In this document: positions 5,149-36,168 of the stretch, piece after piece
How the letters are laid out: every line of letters begins with the position of its first letter
How positions within the stretch are numbered: position 1 is the stretch's first letter
NCBI GenBank assembly: GCA_947462995.1
Contig: CANHUG010000002.1
Location: 1 to 38,280 of the forward strand
DNA: 38,280 nt
From: Verrucomicrobiales bacterium
GTDB lineage: Bacteria > Verrucomicrobiota > Verrucomicrobiia > Verrucomicrobiales > V1-33
Direction: 5' to 3'
The notes under the pieces: model-generated
The model's input: the letters and a program-made list of their open reading frames with translations, nothing else
What the model was told of the DNA's origin: nothing
Databases searched by the model: none
Translations under genes and position numbers: made by a program

Positions 5149-5166
5149 TGAGGGAAGGGAACCGGC

Positions 5167-5187
5167 CCCGGACGGAAGTCGTCCGGG
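5167..5187. terminator. Hairpin between convergent rfbD and hsp20 (possible bidirectional terminator)
   Basis: CCCGGACG-GAAGT-CGTCCGGG forms an 8-bp GC-rich stem in the 64-nt gap between two convergent stop codons. No clear U-tract on either side. Confidence 0.35.
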
Positions 5188-5212
5188 ACCGGCGAGGGGT
5201 GTTGACGTGCGG

Positions 5213-8062: not shown

Positions 8063-8101
8063 ACAGACAACTTACCTGCAACCATCCACCTCAAATCAGC
8101 C

Positions 8102-9427: not shown

Positions 9428-9445
9428 GCTGGTAGAGTTTACGTT

Positions 9446-9489
9446 GAACCCGGCGGTTTCATTTGTGGGGCCGCCGGGTTCATTGTTTT
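9446..9489 (+). terminator. Intrinsic-terminator-like hairpin after the DUF1501 gene
   Basis: An 11-bp perfect stem GAACCCGGCGG / CCGCCGGGTTC (9446-9456 / 9471-9481) around a 14-nt loop, followed by ATTGTTTT. Confidence 0.55.
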
Positions 9490-9576
9490 GGATGTGCGGC
9501 GTGGAGAAGAGTTGCCCGGAAGGTGGAGACATGCGACGATGCGGCTGTGGCTGCTGAATATTCAAACATCTCGTCC

Positions 9577-10461: not shown

Positions 10462-10989
10462 GTGATGCATGAAGGATTGAGAGACGATGGACTGCGGGTG
10501 GCGGTGATGGTGGCGGGATCGCTTGCGATTGGAGCCATCATTAATGCTGTCCGGACCGATGCGGTGCCATGGAGGTATGAGCCGAAGGGGCAGCGGATGG
10601 CGGGTGAGCTGGCGCGCATGGGGTCTGAGGAGGGCGAGACGAGGGAGGTGGCGGCTGGGGCGATTGAGTTGGGTGAGTTGGCGGGGATGGTGCGGGAGCG
10701 GTCGGTGCTGGTGATTGATGCGAGGGCGCCGCTGTTTTTCCGGATGGGGCATGTGCCTGGGGCGGTCAACTTGCCTAGGGAGGGGTTTGCATCGTTTTTG
10801 GAGAGGAGTGGTCTTCTTGGGGAGGGGAAGACGAGGGCAGTAGTGGTTTACTGTCAGAGTGAGACGTGCGAAGATAGTCGAATGGTAGCGGAGTCGTTGC
10901 GCCGGTTGGGGTTTGCGAGTGTGCGGGTGTTTGGTGGAGGCTGGCGGCTGTGGCTTGAGAGCGGTGAACCTATAGAGAAGTCGCCATGA
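10462..10989 (+). CDS. Membrane-anchored rhodanese-domain protein
   Basis: N-terminal TM segment VAVMVAGSLAIGAIINAV. The rhodanese domain reads VLVIDARAPLFFRMGHVPGAVNLP ... VVVYCQSETCEDSRMVAESLRRLGFASVRVFGGGWRLW, with a Cys in the active-site loop position. Confidence 0.8.
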   Translation: MMHEGLRDDGLRVAVMVAGSLAIGAIINAVRTDAVPWRYEPKGQRMAGELARMGSEEGETREVAAGAIELGELAGMVRERSVLVIDARAPLFFRMGHVPGAVNLPREGFASFLERSGLLGEGKTRAVVVYCQSETCEDSRMVAESLRRLGFASVRVFGGGWRLWLESGEPIEKSP

Positions 10990-11429
10990 GGACGATTGGA
11001 GGAGCAGGGTGGACGGTGCTGGCAAGCCGGTTGGTTTTCAGCGGGGTGTTCTTGTGGGCGGGTTGGGGGAAGTTGCGGGATCCGCTGGCGTTTGCTGATA
11101 GTGTTGCCTTATTTCGCGTGTTGCCGCACCCTGCGCTGGTGAGTCTGGTGGCTCTATGCGTGCCTGTGCTGGAATGGTTGGTTGCTGTTTTGCTATGGGT
11201 GCCGCGGTGGCACCGAGCGGCGCGGTGGGTGATGACGGCGCTTTTCGCTCTGTTCGCGGTCGCGTTGAGCGTGGCGCAGATCAGGGGGTTGGTGATTGAC
11301 TGCGGATGTTTCGGGTCGGGTGATGCGACGAAGTGGAGCGTTCCGCTGGCACTTGGGCGGGCGGTCGGGCTTTTGGGGTGGGCGGTAATGTATGGTCGGA
11401 AAATCCAGGGGCGTTCTGCGGACCAGTAG
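10986..11429 (+). CDS. MauE/DoxX-family integral membrane protein
   Basis: ATGA start/stop overlap with the rhodanese gene. It has four predicted hydrophobic helices. VFSGVFLWAGWGKLRDPLAFADSVALFRVLP and a CGCFG motif are typical of MauE-like redox-associated membrane proteins. Confidence 0.7.
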   Translation: MRTIGGAGWTVLASRLVFSGVFLWAGWGKLRDPLAFADSVALFRVLPHPALVSLVALCVPVLEWLVAVLLWVPRWHRAARWVMTALFALFAVALSVAQIRGLVIDCGCFGSGDATKWSVPLALGRAVGLLGWAVMYGRKIQGRSADQ

Positions 11430-12850: not shown

Positions 12851-15800
12851 ATGAAAGCGAAGTTTCCAATTATCCAGTTCCTATCGGCATTACTGGCCGG
12901 GCATGGGCTGGCTGCCACGGTTCCGTACTCGGAGGATTTCGAGGGCGCGGTTGGGCCCGAGTGGTCCCTGTCCACGGTCAACAATGCGCATGTGGCGGCG
13001 TTTACGAAGTTTTCCGGACGGTTTACGAATCAGGCGCAGACCTTAACGATGACCGGGCTGACGGTCGGGACGAGTTACACGGTGGTGTTTGATCTGTATG
13101 TGATCGATTCTTGGGATGGGAATGCCGGGCCTGACTATTTCAAGGTGTTGGTTGATGGGACGGCGCGGTTCCGGGATACGTTCAGCAATTACAATGGGAA
13201 TCCTCCGAGTCAGCCGCAGACGTACGGGGGTTCCCCGGATGTCGGGAGGACGCACCTTGGGTTCAGCGGATCGTATGTGGATGCGATCTACCGGACGATT
13301 GAGGTGCCGTTCACGGCGACTGCGGCGACGGCGTCGATTGCGTTTCAGGGCGAGAATCTGCAGGATGTGAGTGATGAATCGTGGGGAGTGGATAATGTGG
13401 CGGTGCAGACTTCGGCAAGTCTTGCGGCGACGACGGTGGCGTCAGTTTCATTGCCGACAGAGGGCGGGGCGACGAGTGGTCCGATTGACAGGTTCAGCAT
13501 GACCGCGACGCGGGTGCTGAATTCGACGTCTGCCAATGCGGCAGGGAGCTATGAGTTGCGGAGGTCCGGGGCGGACGGTGTGTTCGGGAATGGAGATGAC
13601 ACTGTGTTGCCGTTGGTGCCTTCGTATGCGGGAGGAAAGACGGTGTCTTTTGTGGTGACGGACAATCCGCTGCAGCCAGGAACGTATCGGTTCCGGACGA
13701 TCGGGTTGCTGGACGGAGCGGGCCTGCCAGTAACGGATTTTGTGAGGGTTTTCAGTGTGACTGATCCGCTGGTGGGGCGGTTGGAGAATCTTGACAACAA
13801 CACCCTGGAGCAGGCGACGGCGCTGCCGATGACGGAAACGCCGTCGGGGTCCGGGTTTCTGACTGCGCTAGGTGCGGGGACGTTCAGCACTACGGCGGAT
13901 GTTGATTATTGGAGATTTGATGCCGAGACCGGGGATCGGGTCACGGTGCGACTGGAGGCGGATGCGCTCGGGGTTTATCCGCAGATTTACCTGCAGAACG
14001 GGGCAGGAGCGAATCTGGTAACGGCTGGGGGGGATTACAATGGGACCGTCCAGATTCAGAACTATGTGGTGACGTCACCGGGATCCCTGCTGCTGCGGGT
14101 GTTTTCTACCAATGCGATCGCGCGGTATCAGATGCGGGTGGATCAGGCGCGCGGGGCACTGCTGGAGGTGGAAGCCAACGACACTGCTGCCACTGCGAAC
14201 GTGCTGCCGGTCACCGCCACGATCAGGATTGCGGGGGCGTTTCCTGCGAGTGACAGCGAGGGGGACTTTTTCCGGCTAGGCACTCTGAATGCGGGGAATG
14301 CGATTGATCTGGATGTCTCGTTGCCATCCGGCGGCGTGCTGGTGCCGGGCGACCTGACACTGAACCTGTATGCGGACAGCAATGCGACGCCGATTGCCAC
14401 TGCGGCGGGAGGATTGCTAAGTCACACGCTTGCGGCGGACGGGGTGATCTATGCGCGCATCCGCAGCGGGACGGTGCGGGGACTGCGGGCGCAGTACGTG
14501 ATGGGGCTTGCGATCTCCGATGGCGTGCCTCCGAGGGTGACGGGTACGTCGTTTCCTGTGGAGGGCGGGAGTGCCGCAGATCTGATCGACCGGTTTACGG
14601 TTGCCTTTTCGGAGGAGATGCGGGCAGCGCCGGTGAATGATACGGCTAACTTTGAGCTCCGATCGGCTGGGCCTGACGGGGTGTTCGACAATGCTGACGA
14701 TGCCGTTTATGCGTTTGTGAGCGGAGGCTACACGAGTGGACTGAGTTCGGCGTATCGGGTTACCAATGGACCGCTTCAGGCGGGAGCCTACCGTTTCCGG
14801 GCGTCTACGGCACTGGTGGACCGGGTGGGCAATGGGATGGCTGCCCCGTTTGAGAGGAATTTTTCGGTGGTTGGGTTGCCTGGATTTCCGGGTGAGAATC
14901 GCAGCAATGGGAGTCAGGCGCTGGCGACGACGATGAGTCCTAGTCCCAGCGCCGATCCGGATGGGACGTTTGCTGTTGGCAGCAGTTATGGATCTGGTGG
15001 CAACAACTCGTATCATCTGGTGAGTGGTCGACTTGATGGCGATGCGTTTGATGATCTGGTGGTGGCGAACTACAGTTCGTCGACGATCACGGTGGTGCTG
15101 GGACGTGGTGACGGTTCGTTTGCCGCGCCGGTGACTTATCCGACAGCAGCGAACCCGCACAGTGTGGTGCTTGGGGATCTCAATGGTGACGGGAATCTGG
15201 ATGTGTTCTATTCGAATTACGGTGCTGCGTCGGTGGGCGTCCGGCTTGGGAATGGTGACGGGACACTGGGGGCGGCGGTGAATTACGCAGTCGGGTCGAA
15301 TCCTCACCGGGTGGTGATGGCGGATTTCAATGCGGACGGCCGATTGGATGCGGCGGTAGCGAATTACGGCAGCAACACCGTCAGTGTCTTTCCAGGGAAT
15401 GGGGACGGGACTCTTGGGACGCGGGTGAATGTGGCGGTAGCGGGAGGGCCCTTGGGCATTGCGGCTGGAGACGTCAATGCGGACGGCCGGATCGACCTTG
15501 TGACAGCGAACTACAATGCGCACAATCTCAGTGTGATGCTAGGGGACGGGGCGGGTGGGTTCGGACCGCCGACGGTGACTTCCGGAGTGTCCGGGAGCAA
15601 TCCGTACGCGTTGGTGCTGAGTGATTTCAACGGGGATGGTGCGCTGGATGCGGCGACGTCCCACCTGAGTACAGCGAACGTGGGATGGTTTCGAGGGAAT
15701 GGGGACGGGTCGTTTGCTGCCGGGGTGGCGGTTTCGACCGGGTTTGGCGGTAACTATCATCTGACCGCGGGTGATCTGAATGAGGATGGAAGGCCGGATC

Positions 15801-18800
15801 TGGTGGTGGCGAATTACAGCAACAGCCGTGTGATTGTGCTGGGGGGCAATGGGGACGGAACGTTCGCGGGGCCTCTTGTTTATTCGATCGGAGGCAATCC
15901 GATTGCGGCGGCGCTTGGGGACTACAACAAGGATGGGCGTGTGGACATTGCGACGGTGAACCACACCAATGCGACGGTGACGGTTCTGCTGGGCAGCAAT
16001 GTGCAGCCGCTGGTTGAAGATCCGGTGGGGTCGGGACTTACGTCTGGAGCTGGTCGAGGGCGGTTGGTGCTTGCGGACGGGACGTGGGACGAGGACTACT
16101 GGAGTTTTTCCGGAACGGCGGGGCACGTGCTGACGTTTGCGAGCGAGACGCCGGGGAATCCAGGCAGCAGCGGATTGAGATATGATCTTTACCGGCCGGA
16201 TGGGGCATTCCTGACGCGATTTTATGCGGATGGCAACGGACGGGGGCAGTCATCGCCGGTGACCCTACCGGTCAGTGGGCAGTATACGATCGGGGTGTTT
16301 GTGAACCATGGCTACGAAGGCGAGTACCGGATCCGGGTCAGTGCGGCCCGTGCGCCTTGGCAGTGGGAAGACGAGGGGAACGACAGTATTGGGGGAGCGG
16401 ATTCGCTGGTGATCAGTGCGGGGGCAGCGGGGCATCAGATTGCGAGTGTGGGCGGGTACATTGCGAACAACGACACGGCCGGTGATTATTTCCGACTCGG
16501 GACTCAGGGGGTGGGGACGACGATTGCGCTGACGCTGACGAAACCGTCGACGAGTCCACTGGTGCCGACACTGCAATTGTTCAATGCGGCGGGTACGGCG
16601 GTGGCGAGTGGGACGACGAGTCTGAGCCACACGATTGGTGCGGGTGGTGACGGCGTGTATTTTGCGAGGGTATCGGCGACGCCGGCGAGCAGCGGGCTGA
16701 TGTCGGTGTATCTGCTGGAGATGGATGCTGCAGACATCATTGCGCCGCTGGTGACCGCGTGCACGCTGCCTGCCGAGGGGACGACGAGCACGGCGCTGAC
16801 GGACAAGTTTTCGCTGAGTTTTTCGGAGGATCTGGTGGCGGGTCCGGTGAACAGCATGGCGAATTATGAATTGCGTTATGCCGGGGTGGATGGGGTTTTC
16901 GGCAATGCCGATGACTTTCTACACACGCTGATTGGGGATGGCTACAGTGGCGGGCTGACTGCGGCTTTTCGGATCACGTCTGGGCCGCTGCAGCCTGGAA
17001 GTTATCGTTTCACAGTGGCGACGGAATTGAAGGACCGGGCAGAGAACAGACTTGAGGCGCCTTTTGTCCGCTCGTTCACGGTAGCCAATATTCCGGGCTA
17101 TGTTTTCGAAGGACTGAGCAACGGCAGTCCGGCGGGTGCGACCGGCCTGAGTCTCTCGCCTGGAAGCGAGGCGGACGGTTCGTTTTCGGTGCGCTCCAGT
17201 GGCGCGATCGGGGCGCAAGCCTATCAGGTTGTGAGCGGGCTATTCAATGCCGACGCCTTCCTGGACCTCGTCATCACGAATTACGGCAGCGGGCATGTGA
17301 GCGTGCTGCTGGGGAACGGCAACGGGACCTTTGCCGCGGCGGTGAACTACCCGACGGGTGCGAATCCGTTCGGGGTGGCGGTGGGCGATCTGAATGGCGA
17401 TGGCAATGTGGATCTGGTGACTGCGAATGGAGGAAACGCCAATCTGAGTGTCCGGCTTGGGAATGGAGATGGGACATTCGGCACCAATGCGGTGTTTCCG
17501 GTCGGGAGTTCTCCGCGTCGGGTGGTGCTGGGGGATTTCAACGGAGACAGCCGGCTTGATGCGGCGGTTGCGAACGAGGGCAGCGCGAATGCGAGTATTC
17601 TAGCGGGCAATGGAGACGGGACGTTTGCGGCGCAGACGACGGTGGCGGTGGGTGGATCGCCGGTCGGGATAGCAAGCGGCGATGTCAATGGTGACGGGCG
17701 ACTGGATCTGGTTGTGGCGAATTACGGCAGTGACACGATCAGTGTGCTGGCTGGCAACGGGGCGGGAGGGTTTGCGCCGCAGGCGGTGTTTCCGTGTCAT
17801 CCGTCGTGCGATCCGTATGCGGTGGTGCTGCGGGACTTTGACGGCGACGGGCGGTTGGATGCGGCGACGTCGAACCTGAGTGCAGCGACGGTGAGTCTTC
17901 TGCGAGGCAATGGTGATGGGACATTTGGAGCGCCGGCGGCGGTATCGACCGGGTTTTCCGGGAACTACCATCTGCAGGCAGGTGATCTGGACGGTGACGC
18001 GATCGTCGATCTGGCGGTCGCCAACTACAGCAACAGCCGGTTGATTGTGGTGCGGGGCCGGGGCGACGGGAGTTTCGATGCGCCGGCGGCCTATCAGCTG
18101 GGAGGCAATCCGATTGCGGCGGAGATCGGGGATTTCAACCAGGATGGACGCCCTGACATTGCGACGGCGAATCATGGAAACGGGACGTATGCGATTCTGA
18201 TTGGGAACGGAGTGCAGCCGCTGGCTGAGGATCCTGTGGGAAGCGGGTTCCGTTTCGGGACGGCGCGCGGGAATCTTTCGCTGACGGCGGGGGTCTGGGA
18301 CGAGGATTACTGGGGTTTCAGCGGGAACGCTGGTGATGTGGTGACCTTTGCGAGCGAGACTCCAGGCAACCTTGGAAGCAGCGGGTTGCGTTATGATCTC
18401 TACCGTCCGGACGGGACGTTCCTGACGAGGTTCTATGCGGACGGCAACGGTCGAGGGCAGTCGTCGCCGGTGACACTGCCTCTGAGCGGGCGTTACACGA
18501 TTGGTGTTTTTGTGAATCATGGGTATGAAGGCGAGTATCGGTTCCGGGTGACTACTGCGCCGCCGCCGTGGCAGTGGGAGACCGAGGGGAACGATTCGAC
18601 CGGGGCTGCGAACGGGCTTGCGATGACGGCGGGTGCATCTGGAACGCAGGAGGCGAAAGTTGGCGGGTATATTGCGAACAATGACACGGCAGGGGATTTC
18701 TTCCGCCTTGGCACTCAGGGGGCGGGCACGACGATTGCGCTGGCCCTGACGAAGCCTGACTCGAGTCCGCTGGTGCCGACGGTACAGATTGTGAATGCTG

Positions 18801-21800
18801 CCGGGGCGGCGGTGGCGACGGGTGCGACGGGTGCCGAGTATGAGATTCCGGCCGGGGCGGACGGGGTGTATTACGCGAGGGTAACCGGTGCGGCGGGCAG
18901 CATCGGGCTGATGTCGGTGTATCGATTGGAGATTCTGGCGGAAGACAGTGTTGCGCCGCAGATCACGGCGTGCACGCTTCCTGCGGAGGGGACTGTGAGC
19001 ACGGGGATTCTGGATCGGTTCTCGCTAACGTTCTCTGAGGATCTCGTGGCGGCGCCGGTGAACACGCTGGCGAACTTCGAGCTTCGTCATGCGGGTGTGG
19101 ACAATGAGTTCGGAAACGCCGACGATGTGGTTTACGCGCTGAGCAGCGACGGCTACAGCGGAGGGCTAGGGGTGTCGTACCGGGTGACGAACGGGCCGCT
19201 TCAGCCGGGATTGTTCCGCTATACGGTGGCTGCGGTGCTGGTTGACCGAGCAGGGAATCCGCTGGCTGCGCCGTTTGTCCGGAATTTCAGCGTGGCGAAC
19301 ATTCCCGGGTTTGTTTTTGAGAACCTGAGCAATGGCAGTCCGGCGCTGGCGACGTCACTGAGCCTTGCGCTTGGTGCTGCGTTTGACGGGTCTTTTTCGA
19401 CGACAGCGCAGGTTGGGGTTGGTGCCAATCCTTACAATCTTGCTTCCGGGGATCTGAATGCGGATGGCCGACTTGATGTTGTCACTGCCAACTATGGCGG
19501 CGGGAACATCACTGTGCTGCTGGGGAACGGGAATGGGACCTTTGCGCCGGCGGTGAATTACGCTGCGGGATCCAATCCGTTCGGGGTGGCGCTGGGCGAC
19601 CTGAATGGGGATGGACGACTTGATGTGGTGGTGGCGAACAGCAGCAGTCACAACTTGATGGTACGGCTCGGGAATGCGGACGGCACCTTTGGCGCTTCCA
19701 CGGCATTTGCGGTGGGTACGACGCCACGGCGCGTGGTGCTGGCGGATTTCAATGGTGATGCGCGGCTTGATGCCGCGGTGGCGAACGAATCGAGCGACAA
19801 CATCAGCGTCCTTCTTGGCAACGGGAACGGGACGTTTGCGACGCAGACACCGTTTGCGTCTGGCGATGCGCCTGTTGGCATAGACGCCAGTGATTTGAAC
19901 GGGGACGGGCGGCCTGACATTGTGGCGGCGAGTTACGGGAGCGACAACCTGAGTGTGTATCTGAACAATGGTTCGGGTGGTTTTTCGGCGCAGACGGTCT
20001 TTGCGAGCACGGTGAACTCCGATCCATATTCGGTGGTGGTGCGGGACTTCAATGGGGATGGCCGTCCTGACGCGGTCACATCGAATCTGAGCACTGCGAA
20101 TGTGTCCTACCTGCCGGGGACGGGCCCGGGAACGTTCGGGGCTGCGGTAACGGTGGGCACTGGATTCAGCGGGAACTATCATGTCGGGGCCGTGGATTTC
20201 GATGGCGATGCCCGGTTGGATCTAGCGGTATCGAACTACAACAACAGCCGGTTCATCGTGCTTTCCGGGAATGGGAACGGGACATTCGGGAGTCCTTCTG
20301 TGTATTCAATTCCGGGGAATCCGATTGCGTCGGCGGCGGGGGATTACAACGGGGACGGGCGGATGGATCTGGCGACGTGCCAGTATGGGAATTCGACGGT
20401 GGGGGTGTTTCTGGGCAATGGAGTGCTGCCGCTGGCGGAGGATCCGGTGGGTTCAGGAATGGCATCGGGGACTGGTCGGGGGAATCTGCCATTGATTGCG
20501 GGCACTTGGGATGAGGATTACTGGAGCTTCAGCGGGACGGCGGGTGACATCATCACGTTCGCCAGTGAGACGCCGGGGAGTCCTGGGAGCAGTGGATTGC
20601 GGTATGACCTTTACCGTCCGGACGGTGCTTTCCTGACGAGGTTCTATGCGGACAGCAATGGCCGCGGCCAGTCTGATCCTGTTCGACTGCCGGTGAGTGG
20701 CCGTTATTCCATCGGGGTGTTTGTGAACCATGGGTATGAGGGTGAATATCGTTTCCGGGTGACGACGGCTAAGCCTCCGGTGCAGTGGGAAACGGAGGCG
20801 AACAATTCGATCGCTAGTGCGAACGTCCTTGTGCTGGCGGCGGGGGAACCCGGGCATCAGGTGGCGGCGGTTGGCGGACATATTGCGATCAACGATACCG
20901 GGGGTGATTATTTCCGGCTAGGTGTCCAGGGCGCGGGGACGGTGCTGACGCTGCAACTGACGCAACCGGCTTCGAGTCCGCTGGTGCCGACGCTGCAGGT
21001 TTACAATTCTGCGGGAGTTCTTGTAGCGAGCGGGGCGAGTGAGCTGACGCATACGGTGGCGGCTGGGGCGGATGATGCATATTTTGCGCGAGTCACTGGA
21101 GCGGCGGGGAGTCTTGGGCTGATGTCTGTTTACCAGCTGGACATTGATGCGGCGGACATTATTGCGCCGCAGATTCTAGGTTCGACGCTGCCGGCCGAAG
21201 GGACGAGTGGTGCGGGACTGGTTGATCGGTTCACCTTGAGTTTTTCCGAAGAGCTGGTGGCGGCACCGGTGGTCAACACTGGCAACTTCGAGTTGCGGCA
21301 TGCCGGCGTTGACGGTGCGTTCGACAATGCGGACGACGTGGTGTACGCGATTTCGAGTGATGGATACAGCGGCGGGTTGAGTGCATCGTACCGTGTGACT
21401 TCGGCGCCGCTGCAGCCGGGTTCCTATCGATTCAAGGTGTCGACGGCCCTTGTTGATCGTGCGGGCAATCCACTGGCGAGCGAGTATGTGCAGCGTTTTG
21501 CGATCGCGACGACGGTTGGGTATGTGATGGAGAACCGGGACAACAACACGCGTGCCACGGCGACGGGATTGGTGTTGGAAGAGGATCCGGCGGGGCATCG
21601 GTCGGCGGGGGCGCGCGGGTTTCTGCCCAACCTTCCGGTGACTGGCTGGGATGTCGATCATTGGAAGTTCGATGCGGTTGCCGGGGATCTGCTGACGATT
21701 GTGGCTGGCAATGTCGGCAATCCGGGGAGTTCGGGGCGGCGGTTTGATGTGTATAAACCGGACGGGTCCCTGCTGCAGGGATTCTATACCGAAACGAACG

Positions 21801-24800
21801 GGCTTGGGCAGATGGTGCCGACGGCGGTGCCGGTGAGCGGGACGTATACGGTGGCGATTTCGATCTGGTACGGGCATGAAGGGGAGTACCGGTTCCGCGT
21901 GAGTACGGTGACGCCTCCGTTGCAGCTTGAGAGTGAGCCGAACGGGACGGTTGGGGCTGCGAGTGCGATGAGTCTGGCGACGAGTGGAGATTCCCGGTTT
22001 GGGAGTGTGGCGGGGACGATCCAGTCTGCGGGTGAGTTGGATTACTTCAATCTGGGGTCGATTGCGGCTGGGCAGACGATTTATCTGACGGCGCGGCGTC
22101 CGGGATTGAGCCCGGTGACACCGGTTGTCAGCATTTACACGGCGGCGAATGCGTATGTGCCGGAGTCGGGCGGTGGGCGACCATTTGATGGAGTTGCCGA
22201 GGTGCGGATCACGACTGCGGGGACGTATTTTGCGGCGATTCGGAACGGGAACCCTTCCAGCACGTCGTTGGATCAGTATGTGCTGGACGTTCAGGTGGTG
22301 CCGACTGGGTCGCTGGATTTCCCGAACCTGATTGTGTCTGAGATTGTGCCGCCGTCGGGTGGCGGGATTCTGAGTGGTCAGACGATTCCGCTGGCGTTCA
22401 CGGTGCGGAATGGTGGGGCCTTGGCGACGCCGGTGCCGTCGTGGTTTGACCGTGTGGCGCTGTCGAAGAACAACGTGCTGGGAGACGGGGACGACATTCC
22501 GGTTGGGACGATTGCGCGGATTGGTTCTCTGGACCCCGGAGGGGCGTACACGGTGAACCGGACGTTCCAGCTTCCGGATGGAGTGAGCGGAGATTATTAT
22601 GTGATTACGGAGACGGACTCTGGCAATGCGGTGAACGAGTTTGTGCTGGAGGCGGACAACATAGCGGTGTCGGAGACGACATTCCGGGTGACGCTGGCTC
22701 CCTATCCGGATTTGAGGATTGAGGGTATGGCGGCGTCTGGGCCGAATGCGGCGGGATTGATCGGGTTGTCGTGGAATTCGGCGAATCGAGGCAACCGGGC
22801 GGCGGCTGCGTGGAAGCAGCGGCTGACGGTGACCCGCGCCGGGGTGGCTGGGGTGGTGTCAGAAGTGGAGAGTGACGTGACTGGACCGCTGAATGTGGGG
22901 GACGTGCTGGGGCACAGTGATTCGTTCACGCCTGCGGTGGCGGGGCGTTACACGTTCTCGCTGCTAGCGGATTCCAGGAATGAGGTGTTTGAGCATGACG
23001 GGACGAGCAATGCGAGTGCCGAGAGCAACAACACGGCTACGGTGTCGGTGGATGCGACCCGAGATCTTTCGGTGCCATTAATCGAGGTGACGCCTGATGC
23101 TGGATTGCAGTCGGGCAATCGATTGACGATCCGGTGGACGGACCGGAACAACGGGAATCTGCCGCTGGGGACGCCGTTTTACGATCGGGTGACGGTACGG
23201 AATCTGACGACTGGTGAGAACCTGCTGGTGGAGGATCGGTATTATGATCCGGCTGCGGCTGGGAACGGGGTGATTGGCGCTGGTGAGAACCGGGTGCGTC
23301 AGACGGCGGTGAATCTGCCGGATGGACTGCGCGGGGTGGGCGTGATGCAGGTTGAGGTGATTGCGGATTTCCACGGGCAGGTTGCGGAGTATCTGGCTAG
23401 TGGAGGGGCGGAAGGGAACAACGGGGCGCAATTGAGCATTACTTCTGTGATTGCGCCGTATCCTGACCTGCAGGTGACGGGGTTGGCGCTGGCACCGGCG
23501 ACGGTTTCGCCTGGGACGGTGGTCACGGTTTCGTGGATTGACCGGAATGAGGGGAATGCGCCGGTGCGGGGCAGTTGGTATGACCGGGTGGTGGCGGTGA
23601 ATACGACGACGGGGAGCACGATCTCGGATCAGGTGCTCTACTACGATGTGGCGGCACCGGGTAACGGGGAACTGGCGGCGGCGTCCGGCAGATCGCGATC
23701 TGCGCAATTCACGGTGCCTAACGGGGCAGCGGGGCTTGGTCAGATCCGGGTGACGGTGACGGCTGACACTTATAACGGGGTGTTTGAGTTCAATGCGGGC
23801 GGTACTGGGGAGGCGAACAACGGAGCGGAGCGGACGGTGGCGAGCGCCAACGTGGATTTCACGGGGCCGGTGGTGAGCAATACGCAGTATAACGGAGCAG
23901 GTATCGCCGACGGCAGTGTGCTGACCGGTTCAGGCCGCATCAGTGCTGCGGTGGCTGATCCGGCTGGAATCGGTCGGGTCGAGTTCCATCTGCGCCCGCA
24001 GGGTGGGGCTGATGTGCTGCTGGGCACGGACAGCAATGGGAGTGACGGGTATTCGGCGGTATGGAACGCGGAAGCGGCCGCCAATGGGAACTATGTGTTT
24101 ACGATCCGGGCGTTCGATACATTCAGCAACGAGACGGTACTAAGTCGGACGGTTTCGCTGGCTCTTGCAGCTCCGCCGGCGCCGGTGATCACGGTGCCGG
24201 TCAACGGATTTGAGACGAACCAGAGTCTGCTGACGGTGCGGGGGACGGCGGTGCCGTCCACGCAGGTGGTGGTGCGGCTCAACGGGGTGGATGCGGGGTC
24301 GGGGGTAACGGTTGGGGCGGACGGTGCGTGGCAGATTCCGGTGACGCTCGTGAATGGAGCGAACCAGATCGCGGCGCGGGCGAGCAATGCGGCAGGTGCG
24401 GGTCCGGTGTCCAACACGGTGACGGCGACACTGGATCTGACGGTTCCTAGCCCTCCTGGATCGGTGGCTGCGGTGTCCCGGGAAGACGGGCGCATCCGGG
24501 TGACGTGGACTGCTTCGGGCGGTCCGGGGATTTCCGGGTATCACGTTTACCGTTCGGCGGCACCGTTCAGTGATCCGGCTGGTCCGGGCGTGGTGCGGCT
24601 GACTTCCGCGCTGTTGGCGGCGCAGCAGTATGACGATACGCCAGCGACGGACGGCACGTGGTACTACCGGCTGACGGCGACGAGTGTTGCGGGCAATGTG
24701 AGTGTCCTGTCGGAGTCGGTGTCAGCGGTGAGTGACCGTTTGGCACCGGCGCTTGGAGCGGTTGTCTTTACGCCTAGGAATGCGGCGCACCTGATTGGCG

Positions 24801-27800
24801 GGCGATTCGGCACGGGGATTGTGGATGTTGATGTGCGTGTGAGCGAACCACTCAATGGCTTGCCGTTCTTCAGTCTGGTTCCTGCGAGTGGAGGATTCCC
24901 AGTGCCGGTGACGCTGCGTGAGGGTGCGGATCCGCTGCAGTATGGCGGGAGCTTCACGATCACTGAGGACACTGCGGCGGGCAGCTATCAGGTTTCGTAT
25001 TCGATGCGGGATGCGAACAGCAACCGTGGTGCGGGAACCTCCCCGACGGCTGGGTTGGTGATCGATACGAAGGGGCCGGCGGTGGACGGATTGACGCTGA
25101 GTGCGACGGCACCGATTTTGAATGACCCGGCGAGTCCGGCGAGCATTGAGGTGACGCTGCATCTGGATGAGGTGTCGGCCGGGGTGCCGGAACTGCAGTG
25201 GAGTCTGACGAGACTGCCGGCCAATCTGACGGGGACGCTGGTGGATCTGGTTCCGGGGGTTGATGCGCGGTCGTGGAGTGGATTGATCACGCTGCCGGCG
25301 GGGGCGGGTGCGCCGGAGCCGGAGGATCTCCGGTTTTCGTTCCGTGGGTCTGACGACCTTGGGAATGAGGGGCGCGAGATCAAGGTGACCTCATCGTTCG
25401 AGGTGTATCAAGGGACGCTGCCGGCGCTGGATGCGCCATCCGGTTTCTCGGCGGTGGCGCGTGCTGGCGGTGTCGTGGACCTTGGGTGGAGCCGACGTAA
25501 TGGTGCGTCGGGTTATCAGATTTATCGGTCTGCGGTCAATGGTGGGCCGGAGGCGCTGGTGTCACTTACGGTGATCAGCGACCCGGCGGTCCTGTCATTC
25601 AGTGACGTTCCTCGGGAGGATGGGGAATATCATTATGCGATCGCGGCGCTGCGGACGGCGAACGGGGTGACAGTGGCTGGGACGGCGTCTGCGCCGCCGG
25701 TGCATGCGACGGCGGACGAAGTTCCGCCTGCTGCGCCGCACGACATGGGGCTGACGCTCGCGAGCAACGGAATCCTATCGCAATGGCTGGCGGGCAGTCC
25801 GGCTGAGGTGGGGGTTCGCTATCGTGTGTATCGGGCTGGTGCGCCGATTGATTCGTCGGCGGGGCTGACGCCACTGACGACGACGCTGACTGCGACGCGT
25901 TATCTTGATCCGAGTCCGGTTCCGGCGCTGCGGTATTACGCAGTTGCTGCGGTGGATGCGGCGGGCAACGAGTCGGAGCTATCCAACAGTGCCTATCTGA
26001 ACGCCACCCTGTGGGCGGTGAGTTCGATTACGGTGGAGAAGCCGGAGAGTGGCCCGCTGGCGTTGTCATGGGCGAATGCGTCGCCGGACATCAAAGGGTA
26101 CAAGTTGTTTCTGGGGCCAGCCCTTGGAGGGACGCCGATGTCGCCGACGCTGCTGCCATCGCCGGCATTTACCGATCATGGGTATGTATCGGGCGATCGG
26201 CGGTACAGCATTGTGACCGTTGACAGTGCGGATGCGGAGAGTCCGTCGCGTTCGATTGTGCTTCCGGGGATTGAGTACTCGCTGATGCCGGATCAGACGG
26301 TGCGGCGTGGGTTGGTGAGTCGGCTGCGGGTGAGTGTGCGGAATCTTTCCGAGACTGAGACGCTGGCGAATGCGCTGGCGAAGATCACGCTGGCTGGGCA
26401 GGTGCACCAGTCGGAAGCGTTCAGCCTTGCTCCATTGGAGACTCGGGAGATCGGGGTAGTGGTGGGAGGATATGCGAGTCTGACGGATGCGACGGCCCCG
26501 GTGGCGTTGCGGATTGAATCGCGTCCGGAGGAAGGTGCGCTGCTGCGTTATCTGGGGAGCGGGACGGTGGCGGTTGCTGATGGTGGACTTTCCGCGGAGG
26601 TGATTCCCGGTAGGTTCACGCGCGGAGGGAATGGGAGTTTTCAGTTCAGGGTGCGCAATACGTCGACCGAGACGGTGGAAGTGGTGTCTGCGAAGAGCAG
26701 CGGCGGGGCTGATTCGCCGGATTTGCGTGTGAGGCTGATTGATCCTAACGGGAACGTGCTTTCGGGCAGGCAGTTGCGGATCAATGTCGGGCCGAGTGTG
26801 GTGACGGTGGCGGACGGGACGAGTGTGTTGCGGATGGCGCCGGGCGGGGAGTTTGTGTCTGATGCGATCGAGATTCCGGTGCCTGAGACTGGCGCGGCGC
26901 AGTTGACCGTGCAGATTGAGGTGGACCGCGCCTACTATCGGTACGGAAGGCCGGAGCAAGTGACTTCTCCGGGAACGACGGCGCGGGAGACGGCATCGCT
27001 GACGGACGTGAGTTACGAGGGTGTTATTGTGAGTGCGCTTCCTGCGGTTTCGAATGGAGATCAACCGGTGGTGATCACGGGGAGGGCGGTGGCGAGTCCG
27101 GGTGGGACGGTGCCGGTTCCGAATGTACCGCTGCGCCTGGGGATATCGTCGAGTGGGTTTGAGCGGGTGAATCAGGTGACGACGGATGATGCGGGGAACT
27201 TCAGTTTCCGGTTTCAGCCATTGGCGACGGAATCCGGGCGTTACAGTGTCTGGGTTTCGCATCCGGACCTGTTGCTCAAGACGGCGCAGGCGTCGTTTGT
27301 GATCAGCCGGGTGACGATGGAGCCTGGGTCAGCGTCGATCCGGGTACCGCGGAACTACACACAGCGGATCGTGCCGGTGATTCGGACGGGAGATGGAACG
27401 ACTGCGACGAATTTGAGGCTTGAGCCGGACGGGGCGGTGCCTGCGGGGATTGCGCTATCGCTGGATGCCCGGGCATCGCTTGGGGGCGGAGAGAGCACCT
27501 CTCTGCCATTTACATTCATTGGTGACAGCACTGCTGCGGCGACGGGGAGCTTCCGGCTGCGGCTGGTCAGTGACGAGAACGCGGCTGGATGGGCCTCGCT
27601 GGTTGTTGAGTATGGACTGACGGCGGCGACGGCAGCGGCCACGTTCACGCCGAATGTGATCGATACCGGGGTGAATCCGGGAGGAGCGGAGTCGGAGACC
27701 TTCCGGATCCACAGTGTCGGGTTGGTGCCACTTCGGAATGTGCAGTTGGCCCTTGTGAGGATTGATGGCGGGGCGGAGCTGCCACCGCCGGCGTGGGCGA

Positions 27801-30800
27801 CGCTTGCTGTGGCGCCGCTGACGGCGGAGATTCCTGTGGGTGATGAATTGCCGGTGACCTTGAATGTTCAGCCTCCTGGCGACACAGCGCCTGGCGATTA
27901 CTTCTTTGATATCCGGTTCAAGGCTGCGAATTACAGTGATGTGAGCATTCCGGTGCGGGTGGTGATTACTGCATCGGGGACGGGCAATGCGATTTTCAAG
28001 GTGGTCGATCTGCTGACGCTGACACCTAATCCGAAGTATGTGGGTCCGGGGAATGCGCAGCATCCGGATCCGCTTTATCAGGGTGTGCTTGGTGCGACGA
28101 TTCAGCTGCAGAGCGAGGATGTGGCAAGTTTTGTGCGCAGCGCGACGACGGACGGGTATGGTGAGGCGGACTTCCGGGTGGGTGGCGAGCCAGCGTTGCC
28201 GGCCGGCCGGTACAAATACCGAGTCACGGCTGACGGGCACGACAGCCGGACGGGAAGGTTGCTGATCCGTCCGGGAGTGACGCTTAGTGAGACGGTGCTC
28301 ATTCCGAACCGTTTTGTGACGATTGAGTGGGACGTGGTGCCGATCACGATCGAGGATCGGTATGAGATTCTGCTGGAGGCGACTTTTGAGACGAACGTTC
28401 CGGCTCCTGTGGTGACGGTGAATCCGCCGATTCTGAATCTACCGGCGATGTGTGCGGGGAGTGTGTTCTACGGGGAGTTTGCGTTTACGAACCACGGCCT
28501 GATCCGGGCGAACAGCTTCACGTTTGTGCCTCCGGTGAGCGATGAGTACAACCAGTTTGAGTTGCTGGACGCGATCCCGACTAGCATTGATGCGAGGACG
28601 ACGATTGTGGTGCCGTACAAGGTTACTAGCAAGAAGTCGTTCCCGGGGATTTTGTGCGGACCTGTAAGCAGTGTCGGCGATGGTAGCGGAGCTGGTACGG
28701 GCGGTGGTGCTGGTGGTGCTGGCTCCGGCTCTGGATCAGGGGCAGGCGGCGGAGCGGGAGCGGGTGGAGGCTCGGGCTCGGGATCTGGCGCGGGCGGCGG
28801 ATTGGGTGCCGGGAGTGGATCTGGCTCAGGGAGTGGGTCTGGAACTGGGACAGGAACGGGAACAGGAACAGGAACAGGAACAGGAACAGGATCGGGCAGT
28901 GGATCCGGGTCCGGATCCGGCTCTGGAAGCGGGAGTGGTTCCGGGAGCGGGAGCGGCTCTGGAAGCGGTTCCAGTTCGGGGGATTGCATTCGCTATACGG
29001 CGTGTTTCAACTACACGTACAAGCACAAGTGTCCGTGGGGTGATGAAGTGACGAGCAGCGGAACGGTTTGCGCGAACTATGCGTATGGGAACTGCGGAGG
29101 AACGAGCGGGAGCTCTTCCGGGGGGTACTACTATTCCGGCGGGCCAGGATTTGGTGGCAGCGGTGGCAGTGGTGGCTGGGGCGGCTGGGGCGGTTCGATC
29201 AAGGGGAGCTCGGACGGTTGTTTCCCTGACTTCTTCGACTGCAAGAACCGCAATCCGATCGGCTGCTGGGTCAACTATGTGACGCGGCAATTCGAGGATG
29301 AAGCGCTTGACCTTGAGACGCTGGTGCCGGGGAGCGGCAATGTGGTGAACCGAGTGCGGCGTTTCTATCGGGACAACCGCTGGAACTTCGAGCATGTGGA
29401 TGCGGCGCTGGTGATCAAGACTGACGGCAGTGGTCCGTCGGAGTTGAGTCACCTTGGGAGCAAGTTTTCTCCGGTCGACACGACGCGCCTTGAGTTCACG
29501 AACGGGCGTGACCGGATCCGCCGTGTGTCGGAAGGGTGGAAGCTCAATGCGGCGAATGGCAACTGGCGGGAGTTCGATGAGAACGGGCGGCTGCAGAAGT
29601 CCGGCCGTGATGCGGCGACCCTGCTTGTATACAATTACGACGGTGACGGGAACGTCAGCGGTCTGGGAGGGGCGGACGGCACGCCATTCCTGACATTCAC
29701 CTGGTCTGGCGGCCGCCTTACCGGCGTGACGGACGTGCACGGCCGGACGGTCGGTTACGAGTACAACGGCAATCTGCTTTCGACAGTCACGGACAGTGAA
29801 GGGTTTGTGACCCGCTATTTCTACGACGGGGCCGGTCGGATGGACCGATACATTGATGCCACGGGGCTGACGCACCGGCTTGCCTATGATGGTGCCGGAC
29901 ATGCACTCTCGCTGCTGGACGAGGAGGGGAATGGCCGGTTGTTCAGTTATGATTACGACAAGCTGCGGCGCGAGTATTACCTTGGCGAGCAGTTCACGAG
30001 CGGGTTCCTGCGCGAGCGCTGGTACGACAGCGACGGGAACATCCGTCTCGGCAAGATCAACGGGCAGCTGGTCCGCGAGGTGACGCTTGTGGACCGGACG
30101 GAGACGCTGAAGTACGGTGATGGATCGGAAGTCGTGCAGGAGTACGACGAGAACGGTGCGATCCGCAAAGTCAGCATGCCTGACGGATCTGTACAATCGT
30201 ACGAGTATGATCCGGTGACGCGGGCGGTGAGCAAGGCTGTGGATCCTGCGGGAGTCGTCACGCTCTACCAGAGGGATGCGCAGGGCAATCTGCTGCAGAT
30301 GACCGAGGCGGCCGGATTGCCCGAGCAGCGCAGGACGGTTTTTGCGTACAATGCGGCCGGCAAGCTTGCGTCCGAGACCGTTACGATGAATGACGGACTT
30401 GGTGCGACTGCGAGCAGCTATACATATGATGCCGAGGGGCGGATTGAGACGCGGACGGACGAGATGGGCCAAGTGACCCGCTATCAGGAGCACGATGCGA
30501 ACGGGTATGCGACGCGGGTGATCGATCCTGACGACCATGCGATGCGGTTTGTGTACGATGCGAGCGGTCGGATGAAGAGCCGGCAGGACGCGTTGGGCAA
30601 CCGCTGGCAGTTTGAGTACGACGCGTTCAATAATGTGACGGCGACGATTGATGCGGCGGGGGGGCGTTCGGAGTCCTACTACAACATCGAGAACCTTCCG
30701 TCGCGCACGGTGGACGCTCTCGGGACGGTGACGAGCCTGATCAAGTACGGGCCTGATGGTCGGGTTGCGGAACAGCGGGATGCGGCAGGCCGCGTTTCGA

Positions 30801-33061: not shown

Positions 33062-35077
33062 ATGAAAGCGATTCAGCGACTGCTGCTTCCCGCCATAGCC
33101 CTCTTTGCCGGACCGCTTCCGCGGTTGAGCGCACAGGATGTCTGCGCGCGGGTGAAGATTCAGATTGAGCAGGAGCTCACCTTCGAGCGTGAGGCTTTTG
33201 AGGCACGGATGACGATCACGAATGGATTGCCGGAGACTGGTCTGACGGATCTGACGGTCACGGTGAACTTTGCCGATGAGGCGGGGGAGCCGGTGATTGC
33301 GACCAGTGATCCGAACAATCTGGCGGCTCAGTTTTTCATCCGACTGCAGGATGGGAGCAGCATTCCGTCGTCGATAGCGTCCGGGGCTGCGGCATCGATC
33401 AAGTGGTTGATCATTCCGAGTGCCGGGGCGGGTGGTTCGCTGCCTGGGGGTGTGCGATATCTGGTGGGGGCGGAGGTGAACTACAAGGTGGGTGGGAGTC
33501 CTGAGAAGGTGACGGTGGCTCCGGATACGATTTCGGTGAAGCCGATGCCGCGGCTGACGCTGGATTATTTTCTGCCGTCGGAGGTGAATGGAGATGATCC
33601 ATTTACTGCGTTCATTGAAGAACCGGAGCCGTTTTCGCTGGGAGTCCGGATCAAGAACACCGGGTTCGGGCCGGCGACGAAGTTGAAGATTGATTCGAGC
33701 CAGCCGAAGATTGTGGAGAATACGCAGGGGCTGCTGATAGCGTTCCGGCTGCATGGTTGTTCGATTGATGATCTGCCTGCTGCGCCGACGCTGCTGGCGG
33801 ATTTCGGGACGATTCCTGGTGGGACTACGAAGACGGGGCGCTGGCTGATGACGAGCAGCCTTTATGGGCGGTTTATTGAGTTCAACGCGAGTTTTTCGCA
33901 TGCTGATGATCTTGGCGGGCGGCTGACGTCATTGATCGAGAAGGTGAATGCGCGATTGATGGTGAACGACGTGCTGGTTGATCTTGCTGGCCGGGATACG
34001 GTTCGAGATTTTCTGGCGTACACGACTTCAGCGAGGACGGAATTGAAGGTGTGGGAGTCCAGCGGGGTGGAGACGGAGGTCAGTGATGTTTCCGCAGGTT
34101 CGGCGGTGAGTGGGTCGGGCAGTACCCATGTGGTGACGAATCCTGGTGCAGCGGGGTCGCTTTATCTGAAGAAGACAGATCCGAACAATGGGAGGCGGAA
34201 GATTGTGTCGGTCACGAGGGCTGACGGGAAGAGTCTGTCTCCTGTGAATTCGTGGCTGTCGAAGACGTACATTCCCGGTGCGCAGCGCTACAATTACTTT
34301 TTGAATGTCTTTGATACGGGCAATGCGGCTGGGCATGCCTATACGGTGGTGTTTGAGGATGTGGTGCTGGCGAACCGCAAGCCGCGGATGATTGATCCGG
34401 GGAACCGGATTTTTTCGGCTGGCGCGACGTTTGAGATGCTGGTGCTGGCAGACGATCCTGATGCGGATCCGCTGACGATTTCTGCGTCATCGCTGCCGCA
34501 GGGGGCGACGTTCACGAAGGTGAATGAAGGGGTGAGTGCGCTCCGGTGGGCGCCGACGGCGGCGCAGGTGGGTGATTACACGGTTGGGTTCACCGTTTCC
34601 GACGGGTTGCTGGAGGACCGGAAGAACATTACGATCACGGTGACGAGCGATCCGATTTCGATCGCATGGCGGTCGAGGATTTTCGGGCCGGATGGGAGGC
34701 CGTTTGAGATTTTCTTTACGGCTGACGACGATGGCGACGGGATGGACAACGGATTGGAGTATGCGCTGAACAAGGATCCGCGGAATGGTGACGAGAGTGC
34801 GATTGTGATGCGGATTGAGTTGAATGCGGCGGATGAGATGGTGACGACCCTGACATACATTCGGCGGACGGACGATCCGAACCTTGAGGTGGAGGTGGTG
34901 GGATCGGATTCGAGCCGGGATGCGGGGCCATGGGTGGTGCAGCCGCAGGCACCGGATCCGGATCAGGGGGGAGTGCCTGACGGGATGCAGCGGTGGAAGG
35001 CCGTGGACAGTGTGCCGATTTCTGCGAGCCATCCGCGGAGGTTTCTGCGGGTCCGGGCGAAGGTTGGGGCTCCTTGA
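33062..35077 (+). CDS. Exported multidomain hypothetical protein (beta-sandwich domains, Ig/cadherin-like domain, Ca-binding-like DxDxD motif)
   Basis: ATG lies 21 nt after the giant gene's stop. Signal peptide MKAIQRLLLPAIALFAGPLPRLSAQ. The Ig-like segment reads DPDADPLTISASSLPQGATFT...LRWAPTAAQVGDYTVGFTVSDG, followed by TADDDGDGMDNGLEYALNKDP. The C-terminal ...HPRRFLRVRA resembles beta-sandwich tails seen elsewhere in the window. No catalytic motif recognised. Confidence 0.8.
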   Translation: MKAIQRLLLPAIALFAGPLPRLSAQDVCARVKIQIEQELTFEREAFEARMTITNGLPETGLTDLTVTVNFADEAGEPVIATSDPNNLAAQFFIRLQDGSSIPSSIASGAAASIKWLIIPSAGAGGSLPGGVRYLVGAEVNYKVGGSPEKVTVAPDTISVKPMPRLTLDYFLPSEVNGDDPFTAFIEEPEPFSLGVRIKNTGFGPATKLKIDSSQPKIVENTQGLLIAFRLHGCSIDDLPAAPTLLADFGTIPGGTTKTGRWLMTSSLYGRFIEFNASFSHADDLGGRLTSLIEKVNARLMVNDVLVDLAGRDTVRDFLAYTTSARTELKVWESSGVETEVSDVSAGSAVSGSGSTHVVTNPGAAGSLYLKKTDPNNGRRKIVSVTRADGKSLSPVNSWLSKTYIPGAQRYNYFLNVFDTGNAAGHAYTVVFEDVVLANRKPRMIDPGNRIFSAGATFEMLVLADDPDADPLTISASSLPQGATFTKVNEGVSALRWAPTAAQVGDYTVGFTVSDGLLEDRKNITITVTSDPISIAWRSRIFGPDGRPFEIFFTADDDGDGMDNGLEYALNKDPRNGDESAIVMRIELNAADEMVTTLTYIRRTDDPNLEVEVVGSDSSRDAGPWVVQPQAPDPDQGGVPDGMQRWKAVDSVPISASHPRRFLRVRAKVGAP

Positions 35078-36163: not shown

Positions 36164-36168
36164 AGTTC

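Follow-up and report, generated by a model that had tools for sequence, protein, structure and literature searches.

A 6,729-codon gene of a Verrucomicrobiales bacterium that reads as a Sec-exported Rhs protein with a conserved core stalk and recurrent partner genes

How Rhs/YD cage toxins that depend neither on a secretion system of type VI (T6SS), nor on the toxin complex (Tc), nor on the type V secretion system (T5SS) leave the cells of diderm bacteria and get to a target is an explicitly unsolved problem (PMC13018210). In this study we address it from a 38,280-nucleotide stretch of DNA, hereafter the window (positions 1 to 38,280, forward strand, of contig CANHUG010000002.1, assembly GCA_947462995.1, from a Verrucomicrobiales bacterium), which carries a giant open reading frame (ORF) whose product ends in an Rhs cage followed by a small tail. 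Our preferred reading, to which we assign a probability of about 0.55, is that this giant protein is a Sec-exported, extracytoplasmic protein of the Rhs/YD polymorphic-toxin type, built as a ball on a chain and belonging to a phylum-spanning family that comes with its own accessory genes. The ORF and the parts of its product are as follows.

12851 to 33040, plus strand: giant ORF, 6,729 codons plus stop; mature protein of about 695 kDa, pI 4.6
12851 to 12913, plus strand: type-I signal-peptide-like N-terminus, residues 1-21, with predicted cleavage after GLA, as read from the sequence
12914 to 14920, plus strand: distal N-terminal region, residues 22-690, with Big_5 and PPC-like beta-sandwiches after residue 200
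14948 to 16000, plus strand: FG-GAP 7-bladed propeller 1, residues about 700-1050, from profile scans and loop motif
17159 to 18220, plus strand: FG-GAP 7-bladed propeller 2, residues about 1437-1790, in the second copy of a 737-residue module
19370 to 20440, plus strand: FG-GAP 7-bladed propeller 3, residues about 2174-2530, from profile scans and loop motif
22322 to 23830, plus strand: about four CARDB-type domains, residues 3158-3660, from profile scans
23528 to 28660, plus strand: conserved core stalk, residues about 3560-5270, with Big_7, Glucodextran_B/Big_13 and then a weakly matching stretch
28661 to 29218, plus strand: tether, made of a 107-residue Gly/Ser/Thr linker, a Cys knot of about 40 residues and a Gly/Trp linker
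29219 to 32632, plus strand: Rhs/YD cage, residues 5457-6594, with RHS_repeat and Rhs-associated core
32633 to 33037, plus strand: C-terminal tail of 135 residues, 13.8 kDa, pI 9.0, with 11 Cys

The giant ORF is a single real gene under purifying selection along its whole length. The reading frame stays open from the ATG at 12851 to its one terminal stop at 33038-33040; an in-frame ATG at 12821 would lengthen the product by 10 residues and overlaps the preceding gene, and the start at 12851 was picked by independent gene calls and recurs in four related loci (L001-L004). The ORF is intact in ENA, JGI and Logan assemblies, and at least seven independent assemblies share the in-frame fusion. The window is found at 99.9% identity in two ENA and two Logan assemblies and at 94-95% identity in two JGI metagenomes, one of them represented by a 2.64-Mb contig on which the gene encodes 6,734 residues; in these JGI strains, diverged by about 5%, the first 2,191 residues run without gap or stop. 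When the tail was used to scan species-representative genomes, five metagenome-assembled genomes (MAGs) assigned to Verrucomicrobiaceae, Akkermansiaceae or Verrucomicrobiota were recovered, and the entire 10-kb upstream flank is open in the three that hold enough sequence. Compared with close strains and MAGs (L001, L003, L011, L013), the ratio of nonsynonymous to synonymous divergence (dN/dS) lies between 0.06 and 0.15 in each segment, the tail among them; compared with the distant orthologue L014 it is between 0.14 and 0.39. Thus the uninterrupted 6,729-codon ORF of an earlier sequence-only reading is borne out, and collapse or expansion of its internal repeats is rejected because the three 737-residue modules are only 67-69% identical to one another in DNA. 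An assembly chimera, or a decaying pseudogene left open by chance, has next to no probability: the Gly/Ser linker DNA is of low complexity and short-read contigs end there, but the fusion is found in those seven or more assemblies, including the 2.64-Mb contig and MAGs that are 5-45% diverged, with dN/dS around 0.1 throughout and internal repeats far from identical.

The N-terminus, MKAKFPIIQFLSALLAGHGLA followed by AT, reads as a type-I Sec signal, with a basic n-region containing two Lys, a hydrophobic core of 13 residues and G-L-A at positions -3 to -1; it holds no lipobox Cys. Residues 22-200 give no Pfam match. Further on, three 737-residue modules follow one another, each composed of a propeller, two PPC-like domains and a Big_5 domain. 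FG-GAP_3 matches 19 stretches in three blocks (E = 1.7e-149), and each block contains seven blades with a period of about 49 residues and Ca-binding DxNxDGxxD loops; a relaxed scan for the loop motif returned 20 loops, the first loop of block 2 being degenerate and read by eye. Judged by this pattern, the three blocks are integrin-alpha-type 7-bladed FG-GAP beta-propellers. Significant Pfam domains elsewhere are Big_5 (three to five copies), CARDB (49.6 bits), Big_7 and Glucodextran_B. PPC stays below threshold (16-19 bits against a cut-off of 25.9) yet recurs at regular positions, CarboxypepD_reg is likewise below threshold (18 against 32), and fn3 gives no match at E<=0.1 in the whole protein. 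In the core stalk, about 1,400 residues after Glucodextran_B/Big_13 give only sub-threshold Pfam matches.

Most of what the sequence-only reading had said of this architecture stands. The cleavable Sec signal agrees with direct reading of MKAKFPIIQFLSALLAGHGLA and its predicted cleavage site, and the three integrin-like propellers are upheld by the profile match and the three 7-blade blocks. Its beta-sandwich domains are present, at an estimated 35-40 from the length rather than the 25 or so proposed; among the adhesin-type domains it had named, FG-GAP, Ig-like Big and CARDB are found, PPC and CarboxypepD_reg are sub-threshold, and fibronectin type III is not matched. The canonical Rhs shell was also correctly recognised, but it does not occupy the extreme C-terminus, as a tail of 135 residues follows DPDGL.

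About 1,130 residues of the cage align with solved Rhs shells (best E = 1e-48), RHS_repeat matches 11-13 stretches (2.1e-68) and YD_repeat_2x gives 1.2e-59; the repeat array is long enough to form a closed shell. The cage starts with three Cys, and its N-terminal segment is presumably the plug of the shell, an assignment that we take from the DUF6531 motif, Pfam giving no match. At the other end, Rhs_assc_core (TIGR03696) scores 82.8 bits against a cut-off of 32.5 over residues 6520-6594, and the autoprotease triad is intact in HRYYDPATGRFLSRDPVRDEYNHFLYAQNNPLTKFDPDGL: R6556, D6569 and D6590, then DPDGL followed by R. The catalytic R/D/D residues are spaced by 13 and 21 residues, close to the 13 and 24 reported for BiTLP, the solved teneurin-like protein of Bacillus. 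Self-cleavage of the cage is predicted after L6594, with the severed tail kept inside.

At about 14 kDa, this tail is within the cargo limit of about 15 kDa reported for YD shells. Its 11 Cys are invariant among the four sequences of alignment A1, and a C-terminal RDGWGY is conserved. A tail profile run against an index of 5.8 billion proteins found only fragments of the clade, although this index did not list the tail-bearing P0001-P0003, probably a limit of its word index; an exhaustive HMMER scan of 1.84 billion representatives recovered P0001 and P0002 and again returned only clade fragments, apart from P0123, a CCCH zinc-finger protein that we regard as spurious. A sequence search of the PDB with the tail returned nothing. 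Within the wider family, the tails of L015, L017, L020 and Eleftheria terrae are mutually unrelated; a likeness of the L017 tail to phospholipase A2 was considered and is unsupported, Pfam finding nothing there. In our preferred reading the tail would be the effector. As it is conserved in the clade and has no adjacent immunity gene, it probably acts on something that the producer lacks, or outside the cytoplasm.

The last 3,200 residues or so, comprising core stalk, tether and cage, define a phylum-spanning family whose distal domains and tails vary by member. This family, defined in the present analysis as core-stalk Rhs proteins with a multi-Ig partner, includes the giant protein by its stalk, Cys-knot tether, cage and an adjacent partner gene of the 671-residue type described below. 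In the distant orthologue L014, residues 3668-6729 are kept at 51-68% identity and the core stalk (residues 3668-5270) at 60-68%, and the upstream stalk has LamG- and PA14-like sequence, read by eye, in place of the propellers. Outside the clade, identity amounts to 35-40% for the core stalk and 26-34% for the cage in L015, L017, L020, L022, L023 and L104; these loci include plasmid pLM6 of Methylomonas koyamae, a MAG of Chthoniobacteraceae (L020), Eleftheria terrae (L104) and several metagenome contigs, and their distal domains are of the beta-helix/NosD, cohesin/Ig and CARDB types. The Cys knot motif C..Y..Y.Y.C...G.CGG is kept across the family. Candidate immunity ORFs lie 3' of some relatives, one of 126 residues in L020 and one for an ankyrin-repeat protein in E. 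terrae. In the latter, neighbouring genes encode stalk and cage, the division falling at the tether, and both products have a signal peptide of their own; the ORF of the window is therefore best described, from this comparison, as a literal fusion of stalk and cage modules that also exist apart.

The DNA of the linker within the tether consists of imperfect tandem repeats. Linker length (28661-28981) varies between orthologues: alignment to L011 and L013 opens 84-86 gapped positions here, and the rest of both alignments is free of gaps. Against two MAGs the stalk is 91-95% identical, and cage and tail 82-87%; because synonymous divergence (dS) doubles exactly at the linker, from 0.47 to 0.97, this pattern indicates a recombination joint. 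The nearest cage homologues are 83%, 56% and 52% identical and are all contig-end fragments broken in the linker, and further ones fall to about 32%, the level of generic Rhs proteins. Short-read contigs end in the linker in L007, L008, L009 and L012. Given that contigs of the clade break there, many database 'Rhs proteins' of about 1,250 residues from this clade are truncated giants.

The general kind of protein is known, a Sec-dependent Rhs polymorphic toxin, and what is apparently new is the core-stalk family with its partner genes. RHS toxins with a signal peptide, termed 'T2SS/Sec-dependent' after the type II secretion system (T2SS), were catalogued in 2012 by Zhang, de Souza, Anantharaman, Iyer and Aravind in diderm phyla including Verrucomicrobia and Planctomycetes (PMC3482391). 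The giant protein resembles this class in its signal peptide, RHS repeats and C-terminal effector position, with tails that differ across the family and candidate immunity ORFs in some members. It differs in its core stalk of about 1,700 residues, its Cys-knot tether and its recurrent partners, no signature neighbour genes being named for that class, and it is three to four times longer than the other Rhs proteins in our comparison (all <=2,327 residues).

Bacterial teneurin-like proteins (TLPs; Raoelijaona et al. 2026, PMC13018210; PDB 9pt5/9ifo) are Sec-dependent YD-shell toxins with variable N-terminal adhesion domains, present in Gram-negative bacteria too, whose delivery route is reported as unknown. 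Their YD shell carries a DPxG...DPxG autoprotease and holds a cargo of about 15 kDa inside, and in BiTLP a disulfide joins plug to cargo (PMC13018210). The giant protein shares their Sec dependence, variable N-terminal adhesion domains, autoprotease YD shell and cargo-sized tail, and its Cys residues cluster on both sides of the cage, a likeness to the plug-cargo disulfide of BiTLP. In contrast to TLPs, it has no NHL propeller, its cage beginning within about 15 residues of the Gly linker; its signal peptide is of type I, unlike the lipoprotein signal of Gram-negative TLPs; and an immunity gene comes after the hypervariable tails of TLPs, whereas in the clade of the giant the tail is conserved and has no such gene. 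Verrucomicrobiota is not among the six phyla from which TLPs were reported. Membership of the TLPs proper was rejected, as no NHL match is found, with no room for such a domain, and TEN_YD-shell scores 25.9 bits against a cut-off of 50.

With WapA of Bacillus subtilis the giant protein has in common the Sec signal, the YD/Rhs repeats, a C-terminal region after the Rhs core and independence of a T6SS. WapA belongs to a monoderm and has wall-binding domains and a tRNase tail with the immunity protein WapI. The giant protein, by contrast, has a diderm host and a stalk of about 5,400 residues, and no wall-binding or immunity element was found. The T6SS Rhs effectors (8h8a, 8qjb, 7q97, Tse15, Tse5) possess the same C-terminal autoprotease core and are the best sequence matches of the cage among solved structures (1e-48 to 1e-30), but they differ by their delivery parts: the giant has a Sec leader instead, with no PAAR, VgrG or prePAAR/transmembrane domain and no T6SS genes nearby. 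A T6SS-delivered effector was accordingly dismissed, no PAAR, DUF4150 or VgrG-binding match being found in the whole protein or in neighbouring genes. Finally, the Tc TcB-TcC cocoon and the mosquito protein SGS1 are also large and combine an Rhs/YD shell with a beta-propeller and receptor-binding domains; SGS1, of 3,364 residues, is an Rhs shell bearing receptor domains whose particle acts outside the cell (PMC9935623). Here no TcA is found, and the propellers, separated from the cage by thousands of residues, take no part in the shell. The alignment with TcC is limited to the last 100 residues or so of the core (E about 1e-11), and a Tc BC component was rejected, TcdB_toxin_midN reaching E 0.03-0.07 (13-14 bits against 24.8), which is chance level within FG-GAP blades. 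The window holds no TcA-like gene, SpvB domain or lysis cassette.

Scans of ten overlapping pieces of the giant protein found no PAAR, DUF4150, VgrG or two-partner secretion domain, and profile scans found no NHL and no significant TcB domain. The sequence-only reading had noted the lack of a PAAR or T6SS adaptor, which holds and extends to T5SS and Tc adaptors in Pfam and NCBIfam scans, and had judged the host to be probably diderm, in agreement with the orthologues in Verrucomicrobiaceae MAGs and with the PSCyt2/PSD1, DUF1501 and PEP-CTERM neighbours. Its statement that the whole is not a described delivery architecture was too strong in view of the precedents in PMC3482391 and PMC13018210 and of the FG-GAP and RHS fusions P0065 and P0113. 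Its question of how such a protein crosses an outer membrane is a legitimate one, and the same is asked of teneurin-like proteins (PMC13018210).

The genes around the giant ORF offer candidates for an answer. They form a same-strand run with short gaps, 3' of a hairpin that is likely the left edge of the cluster.

9445 to 9482, plus strand: terminator-like hairpin with a 17-bp stem, just 3' of the DUF1501 gene
9574 to 10440, plus strand: secreted 288-residue protein, paralogue of the PEP-CTERM protein at the cluster end, without the PEP-CTERM tail
10462 to 10989, plus strand: membrane-anchored rhodanese-domain protein with the active-site loop YCQSETC (CxxxxC)
10986 to 11429, plus strand: integral membrane protein of MauE/DoxX type, bearing a CGC motif; gene start overlaps the end of the rhodanese gene; conserved in L020
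11559 to 12833, plus strand: 424-residue protein, anchored at its N-terminus, with a degenerate rhodanese domain, ending in GCGTCPK (CxxC)
33062 to 35077, plus strand: secreted 671-residue multi-Ig protein, the Rhs/core-stalk-linked partner
35105 to 36163, plus strand: secreted 352-residue protein of the TIGR02597 family (127 bits, cut-off 50)
36160 to 36867, plus strand: secreted 235-residue protein whose tail resembles a PEP-CTERM sorting signal (Pfam 18.8 bits, under the cut-off of 20.7)

The gene for the 424-residue protein ends 17 nt 5' of the giant ORF, and the start of the 235-residue gene overlaps the stop of the 352-residue gene by 4 nt. In all Verrucomicrobiota orthologues that were examined, the giant gene is followed by the 671-, 352- and 235-residue genes. 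In the cluster of the Chthoniobacteraceae MAG (L020) the MauE gene, the rhodanese gene (with the loop YCQNVEC) and the counterpart of the 424-residue protein (ending in GCATCPGKR) are present in rearranged order, the Verrucomicrobiota gene set being kept. The two paralogous secreted proteins at 9574-10440 and 36160-36867 (50% identity over 204 residues) flank the cluster in the window, and L020 has two tandem copies. Promoter scans gave no sigma-70-like sites, the sigma-70 model being uninformative for this phylum.

The N-terminal 450 residues or so of the 671-residue partner have no Pfam match, although homologues from Verrucomicrobiota, Desulfobacterota, Gamma- and Betaproteobacteria and other groups share 40-50% identity with them. 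Its AlphaFold2 (AF2) model, with a predicted local distance difference test score (pLDDT) of 87, consists of about six beta-sandwiches; the PDB matches of this model are generic Ig chains from which no enzymatic function can be inferred. Neither it nor the 352-residue protein is homologous to the giant protein. Homologues in Eleftheria terrae, Methylomonas koyamae and, at 33% identity, on plasmids of Nostoc PCC 7120 are annotated just as 'putative Ig domain' or 'Calx-beta'. Each of the seven sampled non-orthologous contexts of this family (7/7) includes a gene for an Rhs or giant core-stalk protein. A relative is encoded in at least 337 metagenome loci; within the flanks available for the best 80 of them, a cage or core stalk is present in 34, a transglutaminase-like gene in 34 and a rhodanese gene in 25. 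Of the 26 loci that extend 4 kb or more to each side, 17 show a cage or core stalk. These counts are lower bounds, because giant genes exceed the flank length. The transglutaminase-like genes in these loci have an intact Cys/His/Asp triad. In L019 (13555-21649), partner and transglutaminase-like genes lie beside a short Rhs core fragment interleaved with three RVT_1 genes. A literature search found nothing relevant on TIGR02597 or on Rhs proteins with rhodanese or transglutaminase, and no description of the core-stalk family or its partner genes within a literature coverage that was incomplete.

In Eleftheria terrae (L104, NZ_CP106952.1 3512-41071), a complete T2SS lies between the partner gene and a rhodanese/transglutaminase pair, with clustered GspG, GspF, GspE, pseudopilins and a secretin that has TPR, STN and cohesin domains. 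T2SS genes (GspG, usually GspF, and GspE in two) are near the partner gene in six metagenome loci as well. The cohesin domain of the E. terrae secretin is C-terminal, the Methylomonas plasmid has a small cohesin gene ahead of its giant gene, and the giant protein of L023 shows a faint cohesin match; a cohesin-type docking interaction may be involved.

A mechanism consistent with these findings can be outlined. Sec would export the giant protein, its leader being cut after A21, and the cage would cleave itself after L6594 and retain the 13.8-kDa tail inside. Disulfides of the Cys knot, the stalk-cage junction and the tail could be made or rearranged by the rhodanese, MauE and CxxC proteins, acting in the periplasm. 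Mycobacterial DoxX is reported to work with a rhodanese. The outer membrane would be crossed through a T2SS-type secretin encoded elsewhere in the genome, proposed because such a system lies inside the cluster in relatives, the alternative being lysis. Extracellularly, target choice would fall to the distal propeller and lectin-like modules, the conserved core stalk and the multi-Ig partner would serve as an invariant unit anchoring or presenting the cage, and the tail would act as effector. More tentatively, and with odds clearly below even, the ORF could be the fused giant form of an unnamed multi-phylum Rhs delivery system, independent of T6SS and Tc, with stalk protein and cage either fused or separate, that combines redox and transglutaminase maturation, a T2SS-type secretin, the multi-Ig partner, distal targeting and exchangeable tails.

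Several observations weigh against the toxin reading or its proposed export route. No secretion-system or T2SS gene is found in the window or within 10 kb of any Verrucomicrobiota locus, and the link to a T2SS comes from seven loci of other lineages. A secretin may be too narrow to let a folded Rhs cage pass. The roles of the 671-residue, rhodanese and MauE proteins are suggested by linkage and Cys motifs. Across genome orthologues the tail is 51-85% identical, in step with the cage, and thus not polymorphic within the clade. Pfam gives no match, toxin or other, on the tails of the window, L015, L017 and L020, and no recognisable toxin fold is seen in an AF2 model of the tail from a six-sequence alignment (pLDDT 53; best Foldseek E=0.67). 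No small immunity gene adjoins the giant ORF, the next gene, 21 nt on, being that of the conserved 671-residue secreted protein.

A non-toxic adhesion or signalling role is consequently a serious rival, though in our estimate improbable on balance: the protein would be a giant adhesin or cell-surface receptor of teneurin type, attaching through its propellers and Ig-like domains to particles, algae or kin, and the cage and conserved tail would be structural or signalling parts rather than a weapon. The lack of polymorphism in the tail (dN/dS 0.11-0.15 in comparison with L011 and L013, two close MAGs), the conservation of the three downstream genes and the missing immunity gene all suit this view, as does the fact that all partner proteins are secreted or surface-sorted, one of them with the PEP-CTERM-like tail; a communication role has moreover been left open for YD-shell proteins (PMC13018210). 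Against it speak the intact autoprotease triad and the cargo-sized tail, given that metazoan teneurins, the sole purely adhesive case, have lost the autoprotease motif (PMC13018210), as well as the unrelated tails and candidate immunity ORFs of the wider family, the ankyrin-repeat protein among them, which are a polymorphic-toxin signature.

Equally doubtful, at roughly one chance in a handful, is a released toxin particle, comparable to Tc BC subunits or SGS1, that targets eukaryotes, be they protists, algae or animals; it would escape by lysis or in vesicles instead of using a secretin, bind through lectin-like modules and need no immunity protein. The absence of an immunity gene and a Cys-rich, basic tail fitting a disulfide-folded extracellular effector agree with it; the Rhs shell of SGS1, with its receptor domains, works as a free particle (PMC9935623), Tc toxins exit by a type 10 secretion system, as cited in PMC13018210, and the source is probably freshwater, one MAG title mentioning a pond. 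However, the window has no TcA-like translocator, TcB/SpvB domain or lysis cassette, and the dedicated T2SS of relatives points to active secretion. We retain the Sec-exported protein of polymorphic-toxin type as the preferred reading.

Some further features of the window were recorded. A PSCyt2/PSD1 (DUF1549/DUF1553) gene followed by a DUF1501 gene occupies 6014-9427, and since this pair is typical of Planctomycetota and Verrucomicrobiota it supports placement there. Just downstream of the cluster, on the minus strand at 37336-38223, lies a 5'-truncated IS66-family transposase ORF, which matches only positions 68-283 of the DDE_Tnp_IS66 model (3e-57); the sequences of the close strains L005 and L006 stop short of it. 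The GC skew is extreme, averaging +0.26 across the window, with values from 0.14 to 0.38. For third codon positions, the giant gene on the plus strand has a skew of +0.36, and the SIS gene on the minus strand, when read along its own strand, one of -0.67; because the sign flips between the two genes, the skew tracks the DNA strand and not the coding strand. It amounts to 0.32-0.33 in the close relatives L010, L011 and L013 and is near 0 in L008, L009, L012, L014 and L017.

For annotation, our work indicates that 20-kb ORFs of the giant-Rhs kind are real, selected genes and not assembly artefacts. The family follows an uncommon pattern, in which the binding end and, at the family level, the tail vary around a fixed middle of about 3,200 residues, with stalk and cage encoded by one gene or two. 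Its occurrence in the cultured Eleftheria terrae P9846-PB and Methylomonas koyamae LM6 makes the delivery question testable through the partner genes, namely those for the multi-Ig protein, rhodanese and MauE, the transglutaminase-like protease and, in some lineages, a dedicated T2SS. Should the proposed delivery system be real, these partner genes would account for the passage of Sec-dependent Rhs and teneurin-like toxins through the outer membrane and for their arrival at the target.

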